44,534 nt of DNA, taken from the sequence record OZ035807.1. The stretch is one strand, 5' to 3'. Below, in pieces: positions 30-44,534 of the stretch. Position numbers and translations under genes: made by a program. The first letter of the stretch is position 1. Every line of letters begins with the position of its first letter. The notes beneath the pieces are model-generated. The model was not told the DNA's origin. It saw only the letters and a program-made list of their open reading frames with translations, and searched no databases. The stretch comes from Vectrevirus LI10P3.

Positions 30-329
30 GTGAGCGTACACAATAAACATGCAGCTACAGAGGATGAGGTTGGCATTCTGCATGGTGCTATTACCAAAAT
101 CTTCAATAAGAAAGCACAGGCAATACTGGACACTATAGAAGAAGACCCTGATGCAGCATTACATTTAGTGTCTGGTAAGGATATTGGTGCGATGTGTAAG
201 TGGGTTCTTGATAACGGCATTACCGCCACACCTGCTGCACAGCAGGAAGAGTCCAAGTTATCTAAGCGCCTCAAGGCTATCCGAGAGGCATCCAGTGGCA
301 AGATTATTCAGTTTACAAAAGAGGAGTGA
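30..329 (+). CDS. putative terminase small subunit (T7 gp18 position)
   Basis: 99-aa ORF with GTG start and AGGAGAG RBS about 6 nt upstream; lies immediately upstream of the HNH and large terminase genes. Call is by synteny only, no motif recognised. Confidence 0.45.
   Translation: MSVHNKHAATEDEVGILHGAITKIFNKKAQAILDTIEEDPDAALHLVSGKDIGAMCKWVLDNGITATPAAQQEESKLSKRLKAIREASSGKIIQFTKEE
122..144 (+). promoter_or_regulatory. phage RNAP promoter-like sequence inside small terminase gene
   Basis: ACTGGACACTATAGAAGAAG matches the core of the repeated promoter consensus; upstream ATTTAC part is not conserved (GCAATA). Confidence 0.35.
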
Positions 330-330
330 T

Positions 331-774
331 ATGCATAGATGGTGTGAATCTCAAGGTTATACCATCTTACCTTCTGGTGTCATCCTTTCAAAGGGTGGCA
401 CCCCTCTCAAACCATTCAAGGCGGGTAGGGGTTATTTAGCAGTTAAAATTAAAAATAAAGAAGGTAAATGGCGTAATGTCTATGTTCATCAATTAGTGGC
501 TTATAAGTATTTACCTAAAACTAATAATGAAGTAAACCACAAAGACGGCGATAAGCACAACAATGATGTTAGCAACTTGGAGTGGGTAACAAGAAGCGAG
601 AATAACTATTTAAAATGCAATGGAAATGATAGGAGTGCCTTAAATAGCTATTTAGCAAGATTAAAAGATTGCTTCTTGCAAGGTAAGGGTGTAGCAGAAA
701 CCGCTAGACTTACTGGTAAAAGTGAACCAAGAGTTTCTTCTCTCTTTAAGGAGTGGCGAAATGGCAAAGGCTAG
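331..774 (+). CDS. HNH homing endonuclease
   Basis: ATG at 331 with GAGGAG RBS 4 nt upstream; motif NHKDGDKHNNDVSNLEWVTRSENN is a typical HNH signature; sits between small and large terminase genes and overlaps both. Confidence 0.7.
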   Translation: MHRWCESQGYTILPSGVILSKGGTPLKPFKAGRGYLAVKIKNKEGKWRNVYVHQLVAYKYLPKTNNEVNHKDGDKHNNDVSNLEWVTRSENNYLKCNGNDRSALNSYLARLKDCFLQGKGVAETARLTGKSEPRVSSLFKEWRNGKG

Positions 775-2659
775 AGAATCACAGGCAGAGGCATTAAAGC
801 GGTGGGAAAACCTTAAAGAACTACAAGACACTTTTAAATATACAGCGGAAGGTTTGCTTCTCTTTGCAGATACAGTTATTCATAACTTAATTGCAGGCAA
901 CCCTCATCTGATTCGTATGCAGGCGGATATCTTGAAGTTCCTATTTTACGGACACAAGTACCGCCTCATCGAAGCGCCTCGTGGTATCGCTAAGACAACA
1001 CTATCAGCAATCTATACGGTATTCCGTATTATTCATGAACCGCATAAGCGTATCATGGTTGTGTCCCAAAACGCCAAGCGAGCAGAGGAAATCGCAGGTT
1101 GGGTAGTTAAAATCTTCCGTGGCTTAGACTTTCTTGAGTTTATGCTGCCGGATATCTACGCTGGGGACCGTGCATCAGTTAAGGCGTTTGAGATTCATTA
1201 CACCCTACGTGGTAGTGATAAGTCTCCTTCTGTATCCTGTTACTCAATCGAAGCAGGTATGCAGGGTGCTCGTGCTGATATTATTCTAGCGGATGACGTA
1301 GAGTCGATGCAGAATGCTCGTACGGCAGCGGGCCGTGCCTTGCTTGAGGAGCTGACTAAGGAGTTTGAATCTATCAACCAGTTTGGGGATATCATTTACC
1401 TTGGTACACCTCAGAACGTAAACTCTATCTACAACAACCTACCTGCTCGTGGTTACTCTGTTCGTATCTGGACTGCGCGTTACCCTTCAGTAGAGCAAGA
1501 GCAATGTTATGGCGACTTCCTTGCACCTATGATTGTGCAAGATATGAAGGACAACCCAGCACTTCGCTCAGGGTACGGGTTGGATGGTAATAGTGGTGCA
1601 CCTTGTGCCCCTGAAATGTATGATGATGAAGTCCTGATTGAGAAGGAAATCTCTCAGGGTGCTGCTAAGTTCCAGCTTCAGTTCATGCTTAACACTCGCA
1701 TGATGGATGCTGACAGATACCCATTACGCCTGAACAATCTAATCTTCACCTCGTTTGGTACAGAGGAAGTCCCTGTGATGCCTACGTGGAGTAATGATTC
1801 CATAAACATCATTGGTGATGCACCTAAGTATGGTAACAAGCCTACGGATTTCATGTACAGACCTGTAGCTCGCCCATACGAATGGGGTGCTGTCTCCCGC
1901 AAGATTATGTATATTGACCCTGCGGGTGGTGGTAAGAACGGAGACGAGACGGGTGTAGCCATCGTATTCCTGCACGGCACATTCATTTATGTGTATCAGT
2001 GCTTTGGTGTACCTGGCGGATACCGAGAGTCGTCCCTGAATCGCATTGTGCAGGCCGCAAAGCAGGCGGGTGTTAAAGAGGTATTCATTGAGAAGAACTT
2101 TGGTCATGGCGCGTTTGAGGCGGTAATTAAGCCGTACTTTGAACGAGAGTGGCCTGTAACTCTGGAAGAGGATTACGCCACCGGACAGAAAGAGTTGCGT
2201 ATCATTGAGACGCTGGAGCCGCTCATGGCAGCACATAGGCTTATCTTCAATGCAGAGATGGTGAAGTCAGACTTTGAGTCGGTACAGCACTATCCGCTTG
2301 AACTACGCATGTCCTACAGTCTTTTCAATCAAATGTCGAACATAACGATTGAGAAGAACAGCCTCCGGCACGATGACCGCCTAGACGCCCTGTATGGCGC
2401 TATACGGCAATTAACTTCTCAGATAGACTATGACGAGGTTACACGGATTAATCGCCTCAGAGCGCAGGAGATGCGCGATTACATCCATGCTATGAATACA
2501 CCTCATCTACGCAGGGCAATGCTATATGGAGATTACGGTACTGAGCGAAGAGTGACCAACACTTCCGTAGCGATGCAGCAGCGAGTTTACGGGCAGAACT
2601 ACCGAAATAAATCGGCAAGCAGAAATACACTTTCTGCAAGGATTTCAAGGACTTATTAA
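761..2659 (+). CDS. terminase large subunit (T7 gp19-like)
   Basis: 632 aa from ATG 761 with AAGGAG RBS; Walker-A-like EAPRGIAKTT near N-terminus; size and position conserved. Confidence 0.85.
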   Translation: MAKARESQAEALKRWENLKELQDTFKYTAEGLLLFADTVIHNLIAGNPHLIRMQADILKFLFYGHKYRLIEAPRGIAKTTLSAIYTVFRIIHEPHKRIMVVSQNAKRAEEIAGWVVKIFRGLDFLEFMLPDIYAGDRASVKAFEIHYTLRGSDKSPSVSCYSIEAGMQGARADIILADDVESMQNARTAAGRALLEELTKEFESINQFGDIIYLGTPQNVNSIYNNLPARGYSVRIWTARYPSVEQEQCYGDFLAPMIVQDMKDNPALRSGYGLDGNSGAPCAPEMYDDEVLIEKEISQGAAKFQLQFMLNTRMMDADRYPLRLNNLIFTSFGTEEVPVMPTWSNDSINIIGDAPKYGNKPTDFMYRPVARPYEWGAVSRKIMYIDPAGGGKNGDETGVAIVFLHGTFIYVYQCFGVPGGYRESSLNRIVQAAKQAGVKEVFIEKNFGHGAFEAVIKPYFEREWPVTLEEDYATGQKELRIIETLEPLMAAHRLIFNAEMVKSDFESVQHYPLELRMSYSLFNQMSNITIEKNSLRHDDRLDALYGAIRQLTSQIDYDEVTRINRLRAQEMRDYIHAMNTPHLRRAMLYGDYGTERRVTNTSVAMQQRVYGQNYRNKSASRNTLSARISRTY

Positions 2660-2680: not shown

Positions 2681-2816
2681 AGGCCCAGATAATAAGAGAA
2701 AATAATAGGTAATATATAGTTTAACCTAGGTTATATAGGTATGCCTTAGTATGGGTGTACTCCTGTACACCCTATTCCTTACTACCTTACTATATTTACA
2801 TAATAGGAGAGAGACA

Positions 2817-3095
2817 ATGGCTAATGATTATAGTAGTCAACCATTAACAGGTAAGTCTAAGAGAAAGCAGGTACAACCTGTAAGTGAAGAACTAATGCTT
2901 CCGGTAATCAAAAAAGAGGAAGCTAGTAAGAAAAGCAATGTCATTAATGATGCCACCAAATCAGGTAAACAGAAAGGGGCCATGGTGTGCCTTGAAGTGG
3001 AAGGTGGTATATTGAAGATTGCTATCGCGGTTGATGGCAAAGAAGATTCAGAGTGGAAGTTAGTAACAGTGGAACCAGCTGTTAACCCAGTTTAA
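2817..3095 (+). CDS. hypothetical protein, paralog A
   Basis: ATG 2817 with AGGAGAGAG RBS; shares the block SGKQKGAMVxLE...L(K/H)IA(I/V)A with the next ORF. Confidence 0.6.
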   Translation: MANDYSSQPLTGKSKRKQVQPVSEELMLPVIKKEEASKKSNVINDATKSGKQKGAMVCLEVEGGILKIAIAVDGKEDSEWKLVTVEPAVNPV

Positions 3096-3113: not shown

Positions 3114-3401
3114 ATGGCTAAATATGGTACTACAGGTTCTGTTACTGGTCAGGCTTTTCGAGTAAAAGCAGTACAAACTATTGCAACGGCAATCCCGATG
3201 CCTGTTGTTAAAGAAGCAGACCTTAATAGTAAAGATCACCCTATCAACATCAAACATTTATCAGGTAAACAGAAAGGTGCAATGGTTGCTCTTGAGAAAA
3301 GTGACACAACCTTACATATTGCTGTTGCACGTGGTAGTGAACCAACAGACCCTTGGGATTTAACTGGCATGGAATCGCTCGCTGTCACTCCAGCAGGTTG
3401 A
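3114..3401 (+). CDS. hypothetical protein, paralog B
   Basis: ATG 3114 with TAAGGAGGAAG RBS; clear sequence similarity to 2817..3095 (LSGKQKGAMVALE). Confidence 0.6.
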   Translation: MAKYGTTGSVTGQAFRVKAVQTIATAIPMPVVKEADLNSKDHPINIKHLSGKQKGAMVALEKSDTTLHIAVARGSEPTDPWDLTGMESLAVTPAG

Positions 3402-3406
3402 GAATA

Positions 3407-3751
3407 ATGCTTAACAAATACTTCAAGCGCCGTGAGTTCGCTTGCCGATGTGGGTGCGGTACATCCACTGTTGATGCTGAGTTATTACAGGTAGTCACAG
3501 ATGTGCGTGAGCACTTTGGTGTTCCTGTGGTTATTACTTCTGGTCATCGCTGTGCTAAGCACAATGCTAATGTAGGAGGAGCTAAGAACTCCATGCATCT
3601 TACTGGTAAGGCTGCTGACATTAAGGCACGAGGCATCTTACCATCTGAAGTGCATAAGTATCTTACTGATAAGTACCAAGGCAAATATGGGATTGGTAAG
3701 TACAACTCCTTCACCCACATTGATGTACGGGATGGGTGTGCACGATGGTAG
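3407..3751 (+). CDS. endolysin, zinc peptidase M15 family
   Basis: 114 aa; motif SGHRCAKHNANVGGAKNSMHLTGKAADI ... FTHIDVR is the His/Asp/His zinc-ligand pattern of small M15 peptidases. Confidence 0.75.
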   Translation: MLNKYFKRREFACRCGCGTSTVDAELLQVVTDVREHFGVPVVITSGHRCAKHNANVGGAKNSMHLTGKAADIKARGILPSEVHKYLTDKYQGKYGIGKYNSFTHIDVRDGCARW

Positions 3752-3859
3752 GTTGTGTTGCATGGTGTGAACGCATGGTTGCTAAGGCTTCAGAGGAAGG
3801 CAACTATGAAGATTGGCAGAACTACTCAACTTTATTAGCTCAATGGAAAGGGAGATGCA

Positions 3860-4009
3860 ATGAAAAAGCTGTTCAAATCTAAGAAGGTTGTAGGTGCACT
3901 AGTTGCATTGGCAATTGCTCTTGTTTCTGTAGGTCTTGGTGTAGACCTTGGCTCTGGCACGGAATCCTCTGTGACAGACGTGGTCTGCCAAGTGATCACC
4001 TGTGAATAA
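3860..4009 (+). CDS. small secreted/membrane protein (lysis cassette)
   Basis: 49-aa ORF MKKLFKSKKVVGALVALAIALVSVG... with signal-peptide-like N-terminus; GGGAGA RBS; below ORF-track size cutoff. Confidence 0.4.
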   Translation: MKKLFKSKKVVGALVALAIALVSVGLGVDLGSGTESSVTDVVCQVITCE

Positions 4010-4223
4010 GTTTCTAGAAGTGCTGGCAGGTCTTATTGGCCTGCTTGTCTCTGCTAAGAAGAAACAAGAAGAGAAGGAGGCACAAAGTGAAGCGAATCAT
4101 GTTAGTGACAATCCTGCTGATTGGTTCGCTGACCACTTCCGGGTGTCAGCAGGCGTTACCAGAGAAAGCAATGGTGAAACCCCTGAGGCCGACGCTGACG
4201 GAAGTTTACGAGGTAGACGATAA
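4002..4223 (+). CDS. possible i-spanin-like membrane protein
   Basis: 73 aa, N-terminal hydrophobic segment then charged region; GTG start without clear RBS; contains the lipoprotein ORF in +1 frame. Confidence 0.3.
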   Translation: MNKFLEVLAGLIGLLVSAKKKQEEKEAQSEANHVSDNPADWFADHFRVSAGVTRESNGETPEADADGSLRGRR

Positions 4224-4296
4224 GGTCTGCTTTAGTAAGCCTGACGCTACAAAATTAGGTTTGTATATTCTTTCGCTAGAACGCGGATATAATTAA
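4099..4296 (+). CDS. putative o-spanin (outer-membrane lipoprotein)
   Basis: 65 aa from internal ATG; hydrophobic signal followed by LTTSGC lipobox-like motif and Pro-rich segment; embedded in / overlapping the 4002 ORF, the usual spanin arrangement. Confidence 0.45.
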   Translation: MLVTILLIGSLTTSGCQQALPEKAMVKPLRPTLTEVYEVDDKVCFSKPDATKLGLYILSLERGYN

Positions 4297-4325
4297 TACA
4301 TAGCTTTATGTATCAGTGTCTTACG

Positions 4326-4349
4326 ATTTACTGGACACTATAGAAGAGG
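4326..4349 (+). promoter_or_regulatory. phage RNAP promoter
   Basis: TTTACTGGACACTATAGAAGAG upstream of tailspike 1. Confidence 0.7.
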
Positions 4350-4427
4350 TAAGATAGCGCCGTTCTTTTGAGCGGCCTATTACTAGCCAATCTTCATAGG
4401 GAGGGTTGGAAAGTAATAGGAGATAGC

Positions 4428-6326
4428 ATGGCTAAATTAACCAAACCTAATACTGAAGGAATCTTGCATAAAGGACAATCTTTGTATGAGTACCTTGATG
4501 CGAGAGTTTTAACATCAAAGCCGTTTGGTGCTGTAGGTGACGCCACTACTGATGATACGGAGGTTATAGCTGCTTCATTAAACTCTCAGAAAGCTGTCAC
4601 AATCTCAGACGGTGTATTCTCTAGCTCTGGTATTAATAGTAATTACTGTAACTTAGACGGTAGAGGTAGTGGGGTGCTAAGTCACCGTTCCAGTACAGGT
4701 AATTACTTAGTATTTAACAATCCACGTACAGGTCGCTTAAGTAATATTACGGTAGAAAGTAATAAGGCGACTGATACAACTCAGGGACAGCAGGTATCTC
4801 TTGCCGGTGGAAGTGATGTTACTGTAAGTGACGTTAACTTCTCAAACGTTAAAGGTACTGGTTTCAGTTTAATCGCATACCCTAATGATGCGCCACCTGA
4901 TGGACTTATGATTAAAGGTATTCGAGGTAGCTATTCAGGCTATGCTACTAATAAGGCAGCTGGATGCGTACTTGCTGACTCCTCAGTTAACTCCCTCATA
5001 GATAACGTCATTGCTAAGAACTACCCTCAGTTCGGAGCAGTAGAGTTGAAAGGTACAGCCAGTTACAACATAGTCAGTAATGTTATAGGGACAGATTGCC
5101 AGCATGTAACTTACAACGGCACTGAAGGGCCAATAGCTCCTTCTAATAACCTTATCAAGGGGGTGATGGCTAATAACCCTAAGTATGCAGCGGTTGTTGC
5201 AGGCAAAGGAAGTACGAACTTAATCTCAGACGTGCTAGTAGATTACTCAACTTCTGATGCTAGGCAGGCTCATGGTGTTACCGTAGAAGGGTCTGATAAC
5301 GTCATAAATAATGTGCTTATGTCAGGATGTGATGGTACTAACTCTTTAGGACAAGGGCAGACTGCTACAATTGCACGCTTTATAGGTACAGCTAATAACA
5401 ACTATGCGTCTGTATTCCCTAGCTACAGTGCTACAGGTGTTATTACTTTCGAATCCGGCTCTACCCGTAACTTCGTAGAGGTAAAGCACCCTGGCAGGAG
5501 AAACGACCTTCTCAGTTCTGCTAGTACTATTGACGGTGCAGCTACTATTGACGGCACTAATAATAGTAACGTAGTGCACGCACCTGCCTTAGGGCAGTAC
5601 ATAGGTAGTATGTCAGGTAGGTTCGAATGGCGGATTAAGTCCATGTCACTCCCTTCAGGCGTTCTTACTTCTGCTGATAAGTACAGAATGCTTGGGGATG
5701 GTGCTGTATCATTAGCTGTAGGTGGTGGTACTTCTTCTCAAGTTCGCCTATTTACTTCTGATGGTACTTCTCGGACAGTGGCCCTCACCAACGGTAACGT
5801 GCGTCTTTCTACCAGTAGCACAGGCTATTTGCAGTTAGGTGCTGATGCAATGACCCCAGATAGTACTGGTACATACGCATTAGGTTCCGCCAGTCGAGCA
5901 TGGTCTGGCGGTTTTACTCAAGCAGCATTCACTGTTACCTCAGATGCTCGGTGTAAAACAGAACCTCTTACTATCTCAGATGCCTTACTGGATGCTTGGT
6001 CTGAAGTTGACTTTGTGCAGTTTCAGTATTTGGATCGTGTTGAGGAGAAGGGTGCAGACTCAGCTAGATGGCACTTCGGTATCATCGCTCAGCGAGCTAA
6101 GGAGGCTTTCGAACGTCACGGTATAGATGCACATCGCTATGGCTTCTTGTGCTTCGACAGTTGGGATGATGTATACGAGGAAGATGCCAATGGCTCTCGT
6201 AAACTGATTACACCAGCAGGTTCCCGCTACGGTATTCGTTACGAGGAAGTACTGATATTAGAGGCTGCGTTGATGCGGAGGACTATCAAGCGTATGCAGG
6301 AAGCACTAGCTTCCCTGCCTAAGTGA
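4428..6326 (+). CDS. tailspike 1: beta-helix depolymerase with C-terminal intramolecular chaperone (peptidase S74-like) domain
   Basis: ATG 4428 with GGAGA RBS; N-terminal FGAVGDATTDDTEVIAA is the pectate-lyase-fold signature; C-terminus has SDARCK followed by LDAWSEVDF...WHFGIIAQRAKEAF, as in endosialidase / tail-fibre chaperone domains. Confidence 0.8.
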   Translation: MAKLTKPNTEGILHKGQSLYEYLDARVLTSKPFGAVGDATTDDTEVIAASLNSQKAVTISDGVFSSSGINSNYCNLDGRGSGVLSHRSSTGNYLVFNNPRTGRLSNITVESNKATDTTQGQQVSLAGGSDVTVSDVNFSNVKGTGFSLIAYPNDAPPDGLMIKGIRGSYSGYATNKAAGCVLADSSVNSLIDNVIAKNYPQFGAVELKGTASYNIVSNVIGTDCQHVTYNGTEGPIAPSNNLIKGVMANNPKYAAVVAGKGSTNLISDVLVDYSTSDARQAHGVTVEGSDNVINNVLMSGCDGTNSLGQGQTATIARFIGTANNNYASVFPSYSATGVITFESGSTRNFVEVKHPGRRNDLLSSASTIDGAATIDGTNNSNVVHAPALGQYIGSMSGRFEWRIKSMSLPSGVLTSADKYRMLGDGAVSLAVGGGTSSQVRLFTSDGTSRTVALTNGNVRLSTSSTGYLQLGADAMTPDSTGTYALGSASRAWSGGFTQAAFTVTSDARCKTEPLTISDALLDAWSEVDFVQFQYLDRVEEKGADSARWHFGIIAQRAKEAFERHGIDAHRYGFLCFDSWDDVYEEDANGSRKLITPAGSRYGIRYEEVLILEAALMRRTIKRMQEALASLPK

Positions 6327-44385: not shown

Positions 44386-44534
44386 ATGATTAACTCCGAA
44401 CTGGTAGATAGTGGTGTGAAGCTTGCGCCACCTGCATTAGTCTCAGGTGGGTACTTCCTCGGTATCAGTTGGAATGATTGGGTTCTTATAGCTACATTCA
44501 TTTATACTGTATTACAAATTGGCGATTGGTTTTA
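44386..44534 (+). CDS. class II holin (T7 gp17.5-like), truncated by window end
   Basis: RBS TAAGGAGG; ...GISWNDWVLIATFIYTVLQIGDWF resembles the T7 holin transmembrane segment; reading frame continues into positions 1-46 if the sequence is circularised. Confidence 0.55.
   Translation, partial: MINSELVDSGVKLAPPALVSGGYFLGISWNDWVLIATFIYTVLQIGDWF

Follow-up and report, generated by a model that had tools for sequence, protein, structure and literature searches.

The open reading frame at positions 331-774 of the stretch of DNA analysed here (44,534 nucleotides of Vectrevirus LI10P3, sequence record OZ035807.1, called the window below) is very likely an I-HmuI-like, free-standing HNH homing endonuclease gene, which together with its flanks makes up a mobile cassette of ~540 bp (about 299-841) located between the small (terS) and the large (terL) terminase genes. 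The cassette is probably active or was active recently, and the way in which phages that carry it differ from those that lack it makes terL the probable target gene of the endonuclease, with codons about 2-28 of HNH-less alleles as the part that is probably attacked.

The HNH gene, its product and its genomic surroundings

The genome is that of a Vectrevirus (Autographiviridae, Molineuxvirinae; the K1-5/K1E/SP6-like group), and the first 3 kb of the window are 98.9-99.3% identical to KMB47, VEc3 and K1-5. The record is circularly permuted: the class II holin gene is divided between the two ends of the window (44386-44534 and 1-46), which means that the window begins just upstream of terS. The C-terminal part of the holin reads …FYVKYKARRDKRERTQ in the window and …FYNKFKIWREKRERTQ in K1-5, and in the bin from -170 to 29 the window is just ~82-87% identical to every relative compared.

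The positions of the features are collected in Table 1. The terS gene, which is annotated as such in relatives, ends with TGA at 327-329 and is separated by a 1-nt spacer from the ATG of the HNH gene, whose Shine-Dalgarno sequence GAGGAG (321-326) lies within terS. At the other end, the HNH gene and the start of terL overlap by 14 nt (761-774), and the window terL continues uninterrupted from its ATG at 761. In carriers and non-carriers alike, terS and terL each form a complete ORF of their own; the HNH ORF thus lies between genes and interrupts no spliced coding sequence, which qualifies it as free-standing. An upstream in-frame HNH ATG, which would make the gene overlap terS, is found in the PhiNW-E1 variant alone. 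The first-pass annotation of this DNA had recognized an HNH gene between the terminase genes and had described it as overlapping both of them. The exact coordinates and the Pfam and PHROG HNH matches agree with the gene call and with the overlap at the terL start, but the supposed overlap with the terS stop is in fact a gap of one nucleotide. The same annotation had pointed out that T7 carries its spanin genes in the terminase interval, which is correct (the Rz-like 18.5/18.7 lie between T7 genes 18 and 19), and that in the present phage the spanins are found downstream of the endolysin, where an Rz-like ORF is indeed located after the M15 endolysin gene.

Table 1. Positions of the features discussed (window coordinates unless another phage is named)
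Feature	Position	Strand	Basis or remark
terS, small terminase, 99 aa, left flank of the insertion site	30..329	+	PF11123 3.6e-16; phrog_891 9.5e-26
SP6-type phage RNA-polymerase promoter core GACACTATAGAAG (presumed)	129..141	+	in terS, ~190 nt upstream of the HNH start
Left patch (putatively co-converted), last 10 terS codons	299..326	+	7 substitutions vs HNH-less alleles
HNH gene, free-standing, 147 aa	331..774	+	ATG 331, TAG 772-774
Beta-strand DNA-binding region, predicted	HNH residues 1-51		AF2 model
HNH catalytic core (beta-beta-alpha-metal motif)	484..618 (residues 52-96)	+	phmmer alignment to 1u3e_M; conservation
C-terminal HTH DNA-binding domain, predicted	631..759 (residues 101-143)	+	AF2 three-helix bundle
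terL, large terminase, 632 aa, right flank	761..2659	+	phrog_17672 2.2e-238; PF22530 1.5e-35
Recoded terL 5' patch, codons 2-27	766..841	+	28/76 nt and 5 aa changed relative to all HNH-less alleles
M15 endolysin	3407-3751		upstream of the spanin ORFs
ORF with N-terminal TMD, overlapping the Rz-like spanin ORF	4002-4223		downstream of the endolysin
Rz-like spanin ORF	4099-4296		phrog_8971, E=1.3e-38
Second, paralogous HNH gene in K1E	4514-4945 of K1E	-	
Second, paralogous HNH gene in EC120	3583-4011 of EC120		

The SP6-type core GACACTATAGAAG inside terS is taken by us to be a promoter on the grounds of the SP6 consensus. The core GACACTATAGAA(G/C) occurs in 10 copies in the window, where 0.09 would be expected by chance, and all of them are on the + strand (129, 2666, 4334, 16951, 17799, 21501, 21964, 23195, 26345 and 31988). 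By its sequence, the copy at 129-141 probably contributes to late transcription of the HNH gene and terL; it belongs to the context of the insertion and lies outside the mobile cassette. Further downstream, two tandem paralogous small ORFs (2815-3095 and 3114-3401) have the motif SGKQKGAMV-LE in common. The name 'acetyl-CoA acetyltransferase' that these ORFs bear in RefSeq relatives is apparently an artefact of annotation, and a probable duplication is noted for them in the LL11 record. In KAW1A4500 and in the metagenomic contig L018, an extra ORF of 225-233 aa (phrog_32357) is present between the tandem ORFs and the endolysin.

The HNH protein matches the Pfam family HNH_3 (PF13392, E=2.6e-11, 43.4 bits at a cut-off of 24.8) and the PHROG HNH families phrog_59 (1.3e-29) and phrog_959. 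Among solved structures, the sole significant match by sequence is I-HmuI (PDB 1U3E; phmmer, E=5.4e-6, residues 11-92). The same structure is the only significant PDB match in a Foldseek search (E=7.6e-7, prob 1.00, 30% identity over 115 columns) with an AlphaFold2 model built from 46 homologues (mean pLDDT 93, pTM 0.78). In the alignment, N69-H70 of the HNH protein corresponds to D74-H75 of I-HmuI, N82 to N87 and N91 to N96, and H53, H70, D72, N77 and N82 are invariant among the 46 homologues. The ββα-metal motif of HNH_3/I-HmuI-like enzymes, with its general-base histidine and its asparagines, is therefore present; the catalytic roles of the aligned residues are presumed to be those assigned in the I-HmuI structure paper.

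In the model, the nuclease is preceded by a predicted N-terminal beta region and followed by helices 101-116, 121-128 and 132-143. The C-terminal bundle shows weak similarity to HTH domains (ECF sigma region 4, 6dxo, E=0.5; HetR/ArdK/recombinase HTH), and HTH_23 matches are found in variants and paralogues of the protein. The match to I-HmuI combined with the HTH bundle indicates the modular architecture of a sequence-specific homing endonuclease and not that of a bare HNH nuclease. I-HmuI has an aspartate at the position equivalent to N69, and metal coordination in the HNH protein may therefore differ. Moreover, I-HmuI is a nickase, which means that a double-strand break by the HNH protein is not assured. 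Among three allelic variants of the gene (those of the window, AAPEc6 and PhiNW-E1), dN/dS is 0.12-0.15, indicating that the protein is kept by selection. GenBank records of close relatives already label the ORF 'HNH (homing) endonuclease', and we found no paper analysing the HNH gene in Vectrevirus or AAPEc6. A tblastn search revealed no second HNH copy in the window.

Distribution of the cassette and its recoded flanks

At the DNA level, the HNH gene is present in 17 of ~79 related phage records, all of them Vectrevirus and all with the gene at the terS|terL junction, and the HNH-less terL 5' allele is present in 62 Vectrevirus-type records, these counts being inflated by RefSeq/GenBank duplicates and by repeat isolates of one study (the OZ0357xx-OZ0358xx series). 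Carriers include 14 records at ≥99% identity, AAPEc6 at 96.5% and PhiNW-E1 at 91%; the closest proteins of other phage genomes fall below 60% identity to the HNH protein. The empty site, found in K1-5, LL11, KMB14, G9, KAW1A4500, K1E and many others, is a terS/terL overlap, TGATG. Comparison of the terminase locus across relatives, which the first-pass annotation had proposed as a check, thus reveals an insert that is polymorphic, being sporadically present or absent at one precise site among close relatives. IMG/VR, searched for close relatives, yielded a contig equivalent to AAPEc6 and otherwise only distant homologues (38-45%). Klebsiella phage cp4, suggested by a short DNA match as a same-site carrier, was rejected because its homologue sits in the early region in another context; cp4 belongs to the Klebsiella lineage with an intron-bearing terL.

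Two assemblies both named 'Vectrevirus T145P2' differ in the presence of the gene, OZ035747.1 being HNH+ and OZ035802.1 HNH-. Their first 1.2 kb are identical apart from the cassette and its patches, and the scattered differences beyond this region show that the two phages are not the same. Both may have been present in a single sample, a situation in which homing could occur naturally. Another copy of the cassette, at 4001-4743 of the Logan contig ERR4564195_3579, has two single-base deletions in A-runs (at about window positions 317 and 451) that join terS to the N-terminal part of the HNH protein and break the HNH ORF in two. The copy represents either a decaying endonuclease gene or a homopolymer sequencing error and, since an assembly error is possible, it was not used as evidence of decay.

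The carriers do not form a group of their own. In a terS-terL alignment of 12 carriers and 8 non-carriers, the mean identity of terL outside the cassette is 96.25% between HNH+ and HNH- phages, 95.9% within HNH+ and 96.7% within HNH-; between-class identity is thus about the same as within-class identity, and the carriers are scattered over backbones and intermixed with non-carriers. The window terL itself is 99.6% identical to that of the HNH-less K1-5 and only 91.9% identical to that of the HNH+ Mt1B1_P10. The cassette behaves differently: carriers whose remaining terL differs at 62-154 of 1818 nt have 0-2 mismatches to each other in 331-841. Between the window and Mt1B1_P10 there are 148 differences in the remaining 1818 nt of terL and none in the 511 nt of the cassette, where co-divergence at the flank rate (8.1%) would have produced ~42. 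Overall, the cassette is ~5-fold less diverse than its flanks, and the tracts that carriers have in common end at 871-952 on the right, 30-110 nt past the patch described below. A cassette that is less diverged than its flanks, incongruent with them and accompanied by co-converted flanking sequence points to horizontal spread.

The first-pass annotation had called the gene a likely recent mobile insertion. Its mobility, and the recency of its spread over the present Vectrevirus backbones, agree with these data. The gene is not new at the site, which is also occupied by the 91% variant of PhiNW-E1 and, in a lineage of Klebsiella phages, by a variant with 59% amino acid identity. The outcome that would have spoken against mobility, namely the gene in all relatives with a divergence like that of its flanks, was not encountered; the opposite was found, a sporadic gene in a near-invariant cassette.

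The boundaries of the exchanged segment are sharp. When the window is compared with HNH-less alleles, identity is 99.6% in terS 30-298 and in terL 842-1100, 75% in 299-326 and 63% in 766-841 (for K1-5, 63.2% in 766-841 and 99.6% in 842-1100). All 27 fixed differences between the 12 carriers and the 8 non-carriers in 2.6 kb are located next to the gene, 3 at 317-326 and 24 at 766-837. In the left patch, which includes the HNH ribosome-binding site, 3 of the 7 substitutions are fixed (317, 320 and 326). The synonymous sites of the right patch are saturated (18 synonymous differences over 16.8 synonymous sites). The patch changes five TerL residues (A13K, M17N, Q19K, Q23D and P26K) and is farther from both K1-5 and the Klebsiella lineage than K1-5 is from that lineage. 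A search for its donor returned no phage outside the carriers that matches nt 1-87 of the window terL.

Linkage between the right patch and the HNH gene is complete: the patch is ≥95% identical in 17 records and 80-86% identical in all others. An HNH-less genome with the recoded patch, i.e., an 'immune, empty' allele, was not found among the phage records (the counts for gene and patch agree at 17), and scanning metagenome contigs for the exact pattern of the recoded patch without HNH gave 0 matches. The left boundary, on the other hand, varies among carriers. The first position of the left patch is 299 for the window, KMB47, UKE1 and EC120, 311 for VEc3 and Mt1B1_P10 and 314 for AAPEc6; in PhiNW-E1 it begins at the stop codon, and the end of terS is essentially of the HNH-less type. 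These at least 3-4 classes of boundary indicate several separate recombination events. We propose that the sequence at 766-841 may be a cleavage-resistant ('immune') version of the endonuclease target that moves together with the gene.

A parallel case is found in Klebsiella SP6-like phages (pKP-M186-2.1, IME184, K1-ULIP33, cp4 and others). The HNH homologue with 59% amino acid identity is located at the terS|terL junction of two metagenomic contigs of this lineage, L018 (45.4 kb) and L019; among the matches listed, the GenBank members of the lineage are without the gene (coverage ≤85%, no HNH annotated). When HNH+ and HNH-less phages of the lineage are compared, terL again contains a sharply bounded block, at about nt 4-90, with ~69% identity followed by 97-98%. 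The HNH-less versions of the block are 78% identical between the E. coli and Klebsiella lineages, and the next 210 nt are 69% identical, whereas the two HNH+ versions (window and Klebsiella) are just 56% identical. These comparisons suggest that terL codons about 2-28 of HNH-less alleles may be the recognition region of the whole family, with each carrier possessing its own resistant version.

The packaging module has other homing elements as well. In some relatives terL is split by an insert of ~700 bp, in which a group I intron is followed by an ORF of 177 aa; in PhiNW-E1, the intron is at 1826-2074 (Rfam RF00028, 61 bits at a gathering score of 50, E=9e-15) and the ORF at 2119-2652. The ORF product has weak GIY-YIG and I-HmuI NUMOD-like matches. 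The insert is also present in L019 and, by annotation, in Klebsiella phages K1-ULIP33, KpnP_VR702 and Kpp-61 and in Salmonella phage PST_H2; PhiNW-E1 and L019 contain both the terL intron and the terS|terL HNH gene. A second, paralogous HNH_3+HTH gene, which is absent from the window, is located between holin and terS in K1E and EC120. Its 143-aa product is 35% identical to the window HNH protein and matches phrog_59 (1.6e-38). In EC120, terS is thus flanked by an HNH gene on either side, and with the terS|terL HNH, the holin|terS HNH and the terL intron, the packaging module contains at least 3 sites at which homing elements occur sporadically.

Homing and alternative explanations

The sequence data lead us to infer that the HNH gene spreads by homing, that is, by endonuclease-driven conversion. 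The gene would be transcribed late, together with the packaging genes, and when an HNH-less Vectrevirus infects the same cell, its terS/terL junction would be nicked or cut by the enzyme, most probably within terL codons about 2-28; the target is placed there because this is the only block of systematic difference between carriers and non-carriers. The break would be repaired by recombination with the HNH+ genome as the template, and the repair would transfer the endonuclease gene into the rival genome together with the diverged patch beside it. The diverged patch would shield the carrier from its own enzyme, and it would also block crossover inside the patch, which would always be co-inherited with the gene as a result. 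It is established that free-standing homing endonuclease genes (HEGs) home with co-conversion of their flanks and cause marker exclusion (PMC2988022), and that HEGs cluster beside essential genes, the terminase genes included (PMC10448857). Collaborative homing with the group I intron in the terL of relatives was considered and rejected, because the window terL is intron-less and would not be protected.

It is possible, though improbable in our estimate, that interference is the main selected role of the enzyme and that conversion is a by-product: late damage to the terL of a rival would cut the yield of that rival. The presumed target is indeed an essential gene, expression downstream of the phage promoter in terS would be late, and T-even phages offer an established case of marker exclusion by HEGs (PMC2988022). 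However, the population signature of such a role is the same as that of homing, so that sequence data cannot separate the two, and an I-HmuI-like enzyme may only nick. A role in interference competition is a variant of the homing explanation and is compatible with all the data. A related and likewise tentative proposal, which we consider rather unlikely, is that the HNH gene and the recoded terL patch constitute a 'weapon plus immunity' module selected for inter-phage interference, and that this arrangement arose, or was maintained, in parallel in the SP6-like phages of E. coli and of Klebsiella. The late enzyme would then disable the terminase gene of the rival and block packaging of its genome, and the patch, with five changed residues at the TerL N-terminus, would be held maximally diverged by selection for resistance.

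A passive passenger is a poorer alternative to homing. According to this explanation, the HNH protein is inactive or domesticated and the cassette has spread through general homologous recombination without endonuclease-driven homing. Identity among Vectrevirus-type phages varies from 52 to 100% per bin, and in such mosaic genomes ordinary recombination could move a neutral cassette. We nevertheless regard it as a doubtful explanation, since the HNH ORF is under purifying selection and its catalytic residues are intact, the fixed differences between carriers and non-carriers are all confined to the immediate flanks, and the cassette is so much less diverse than its surroundings. The recurrence of the gene with a recoded patch in a second lineage is also not something that a neutral passenger predicts.

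An immobile gene that was present in the common ancestor and was deleted many times is less probable still. In its favour, occupancy of the site is old, as the Klebsiella homologue and the PhiNW-E1 variant (91% at the nucleotide level) show. Yet the perfect match between the cassettes of the window and Mt1B1_P10 contradicts co-divergence with the flanks, and the HNH-less alleles are not simple deletions, for they have a different ~76-nt terL 5' sequence and the precise TGATG overlap. The empty allele is, moreover, conserved across the E. coli and Klebsiella lineages (the 78% in the patch region against 69% downstream), and the carriers are the minority. The least credible explanation is that, like HK97 gp74, the HNH protein assists the terminase when the genome is cut and packaged and owes its position to this function: it is encoded inside the packaging operon, HNH proteins of the HK97 type enhance cleavage by the terminase (discussed in PMC10448857) and one paralogue has a weak Terminase_5-like HTH match, but most Vectreviruses, K1-5 and K1E included, have no HNH gene at the site and are viable, TerL has an RNaseH-like nuclease domain of its own (PF22530), and HNH_3 with I-HmuI-type DNA-binding modules is the architecture of a homing endonuclease.

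Significance and comparison with known systems

As a gene, the HNH gene of the window is an ordinary one; HNH endonuclease genes of the free-standing kind are often found near terminase genes. Its interest lies in a well-resolved natural experiment, in which dozens of near-identical coliphages that are candidates for therapy (K1-5, K1E, VEc3, LL11 and others) come with or without a cassette of ~0.5 kb. The cassette has exact boundaries, ~76 nt remain as the putative target and immunity region, and there is a parallel in Klebsiella phages. Homing or interference competition in phages of the T7 supergroup is therefore directly testable with existing isolates. For phage cocktails, mixtures of HNH+ and HNH- Vectreviruses may bring about allele conversion or exclusion.

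The closest known enzyme is I-HmuI of the Bacillus phage SPO1, which has a beta DNA-binding region, an HNH motif and a C-terminal helical/HTH region in the same order as the HNH protein. The I-HmuI gene resides in a group I intron that interrupts the DNA polymerase gene, while the window HNH gene stands free between two genes, and the proteins differ in length (147 aa in the window, 174 aa in I-HmuI) and in the residue before the catalytic histidine (Asn in place of the Asp of I-HmuI). In its genetic organization, the gene is similar to segF, segG and mobE of T-even phages, the agents of 'intronless homing', which are also free-standing between conserved essential genes and sporadic, with co-inherited flanks and a carrier allele that differs at the presumed target (PMC2988022, PMC2790892). 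Seg enzymes, however, belong to the GIY-YIG family and MobE to another HNH subfamily, while the window protein is HNH_3, and the cleavage sites and biased inheritance that were measured for SegF, SegG and MobE are inferred for the window HNH from population data only.

The presence of HEGs beside terminase genes is a documented pattern, described in a survey of T5orf172 and IPA-HNH genes of ICP1 (Barth et al. 2023, PMC10448857). There too, the nuclease gene adjoins terL and marks a boundary of genetic exchange (PMC10448857); the window protein differs in being an HNH_3 protein with an HTH and no AP2 domain, and its exchanged tract is ~0.55-0.65 kb in contrast to the >10-kb 'HEG island' of that survey. 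Proteins of the HK97 gp74 type are likewise HNH nucleases encoded in a packaging gene cluster. They are conserved and required for cos cleavage, whereas the window HNH is dispensable and absent from K1-5, K1E, LL11 and most other records of the phage group, and, unlike them, it has the DNA-binding modules of a homing endonuclease.
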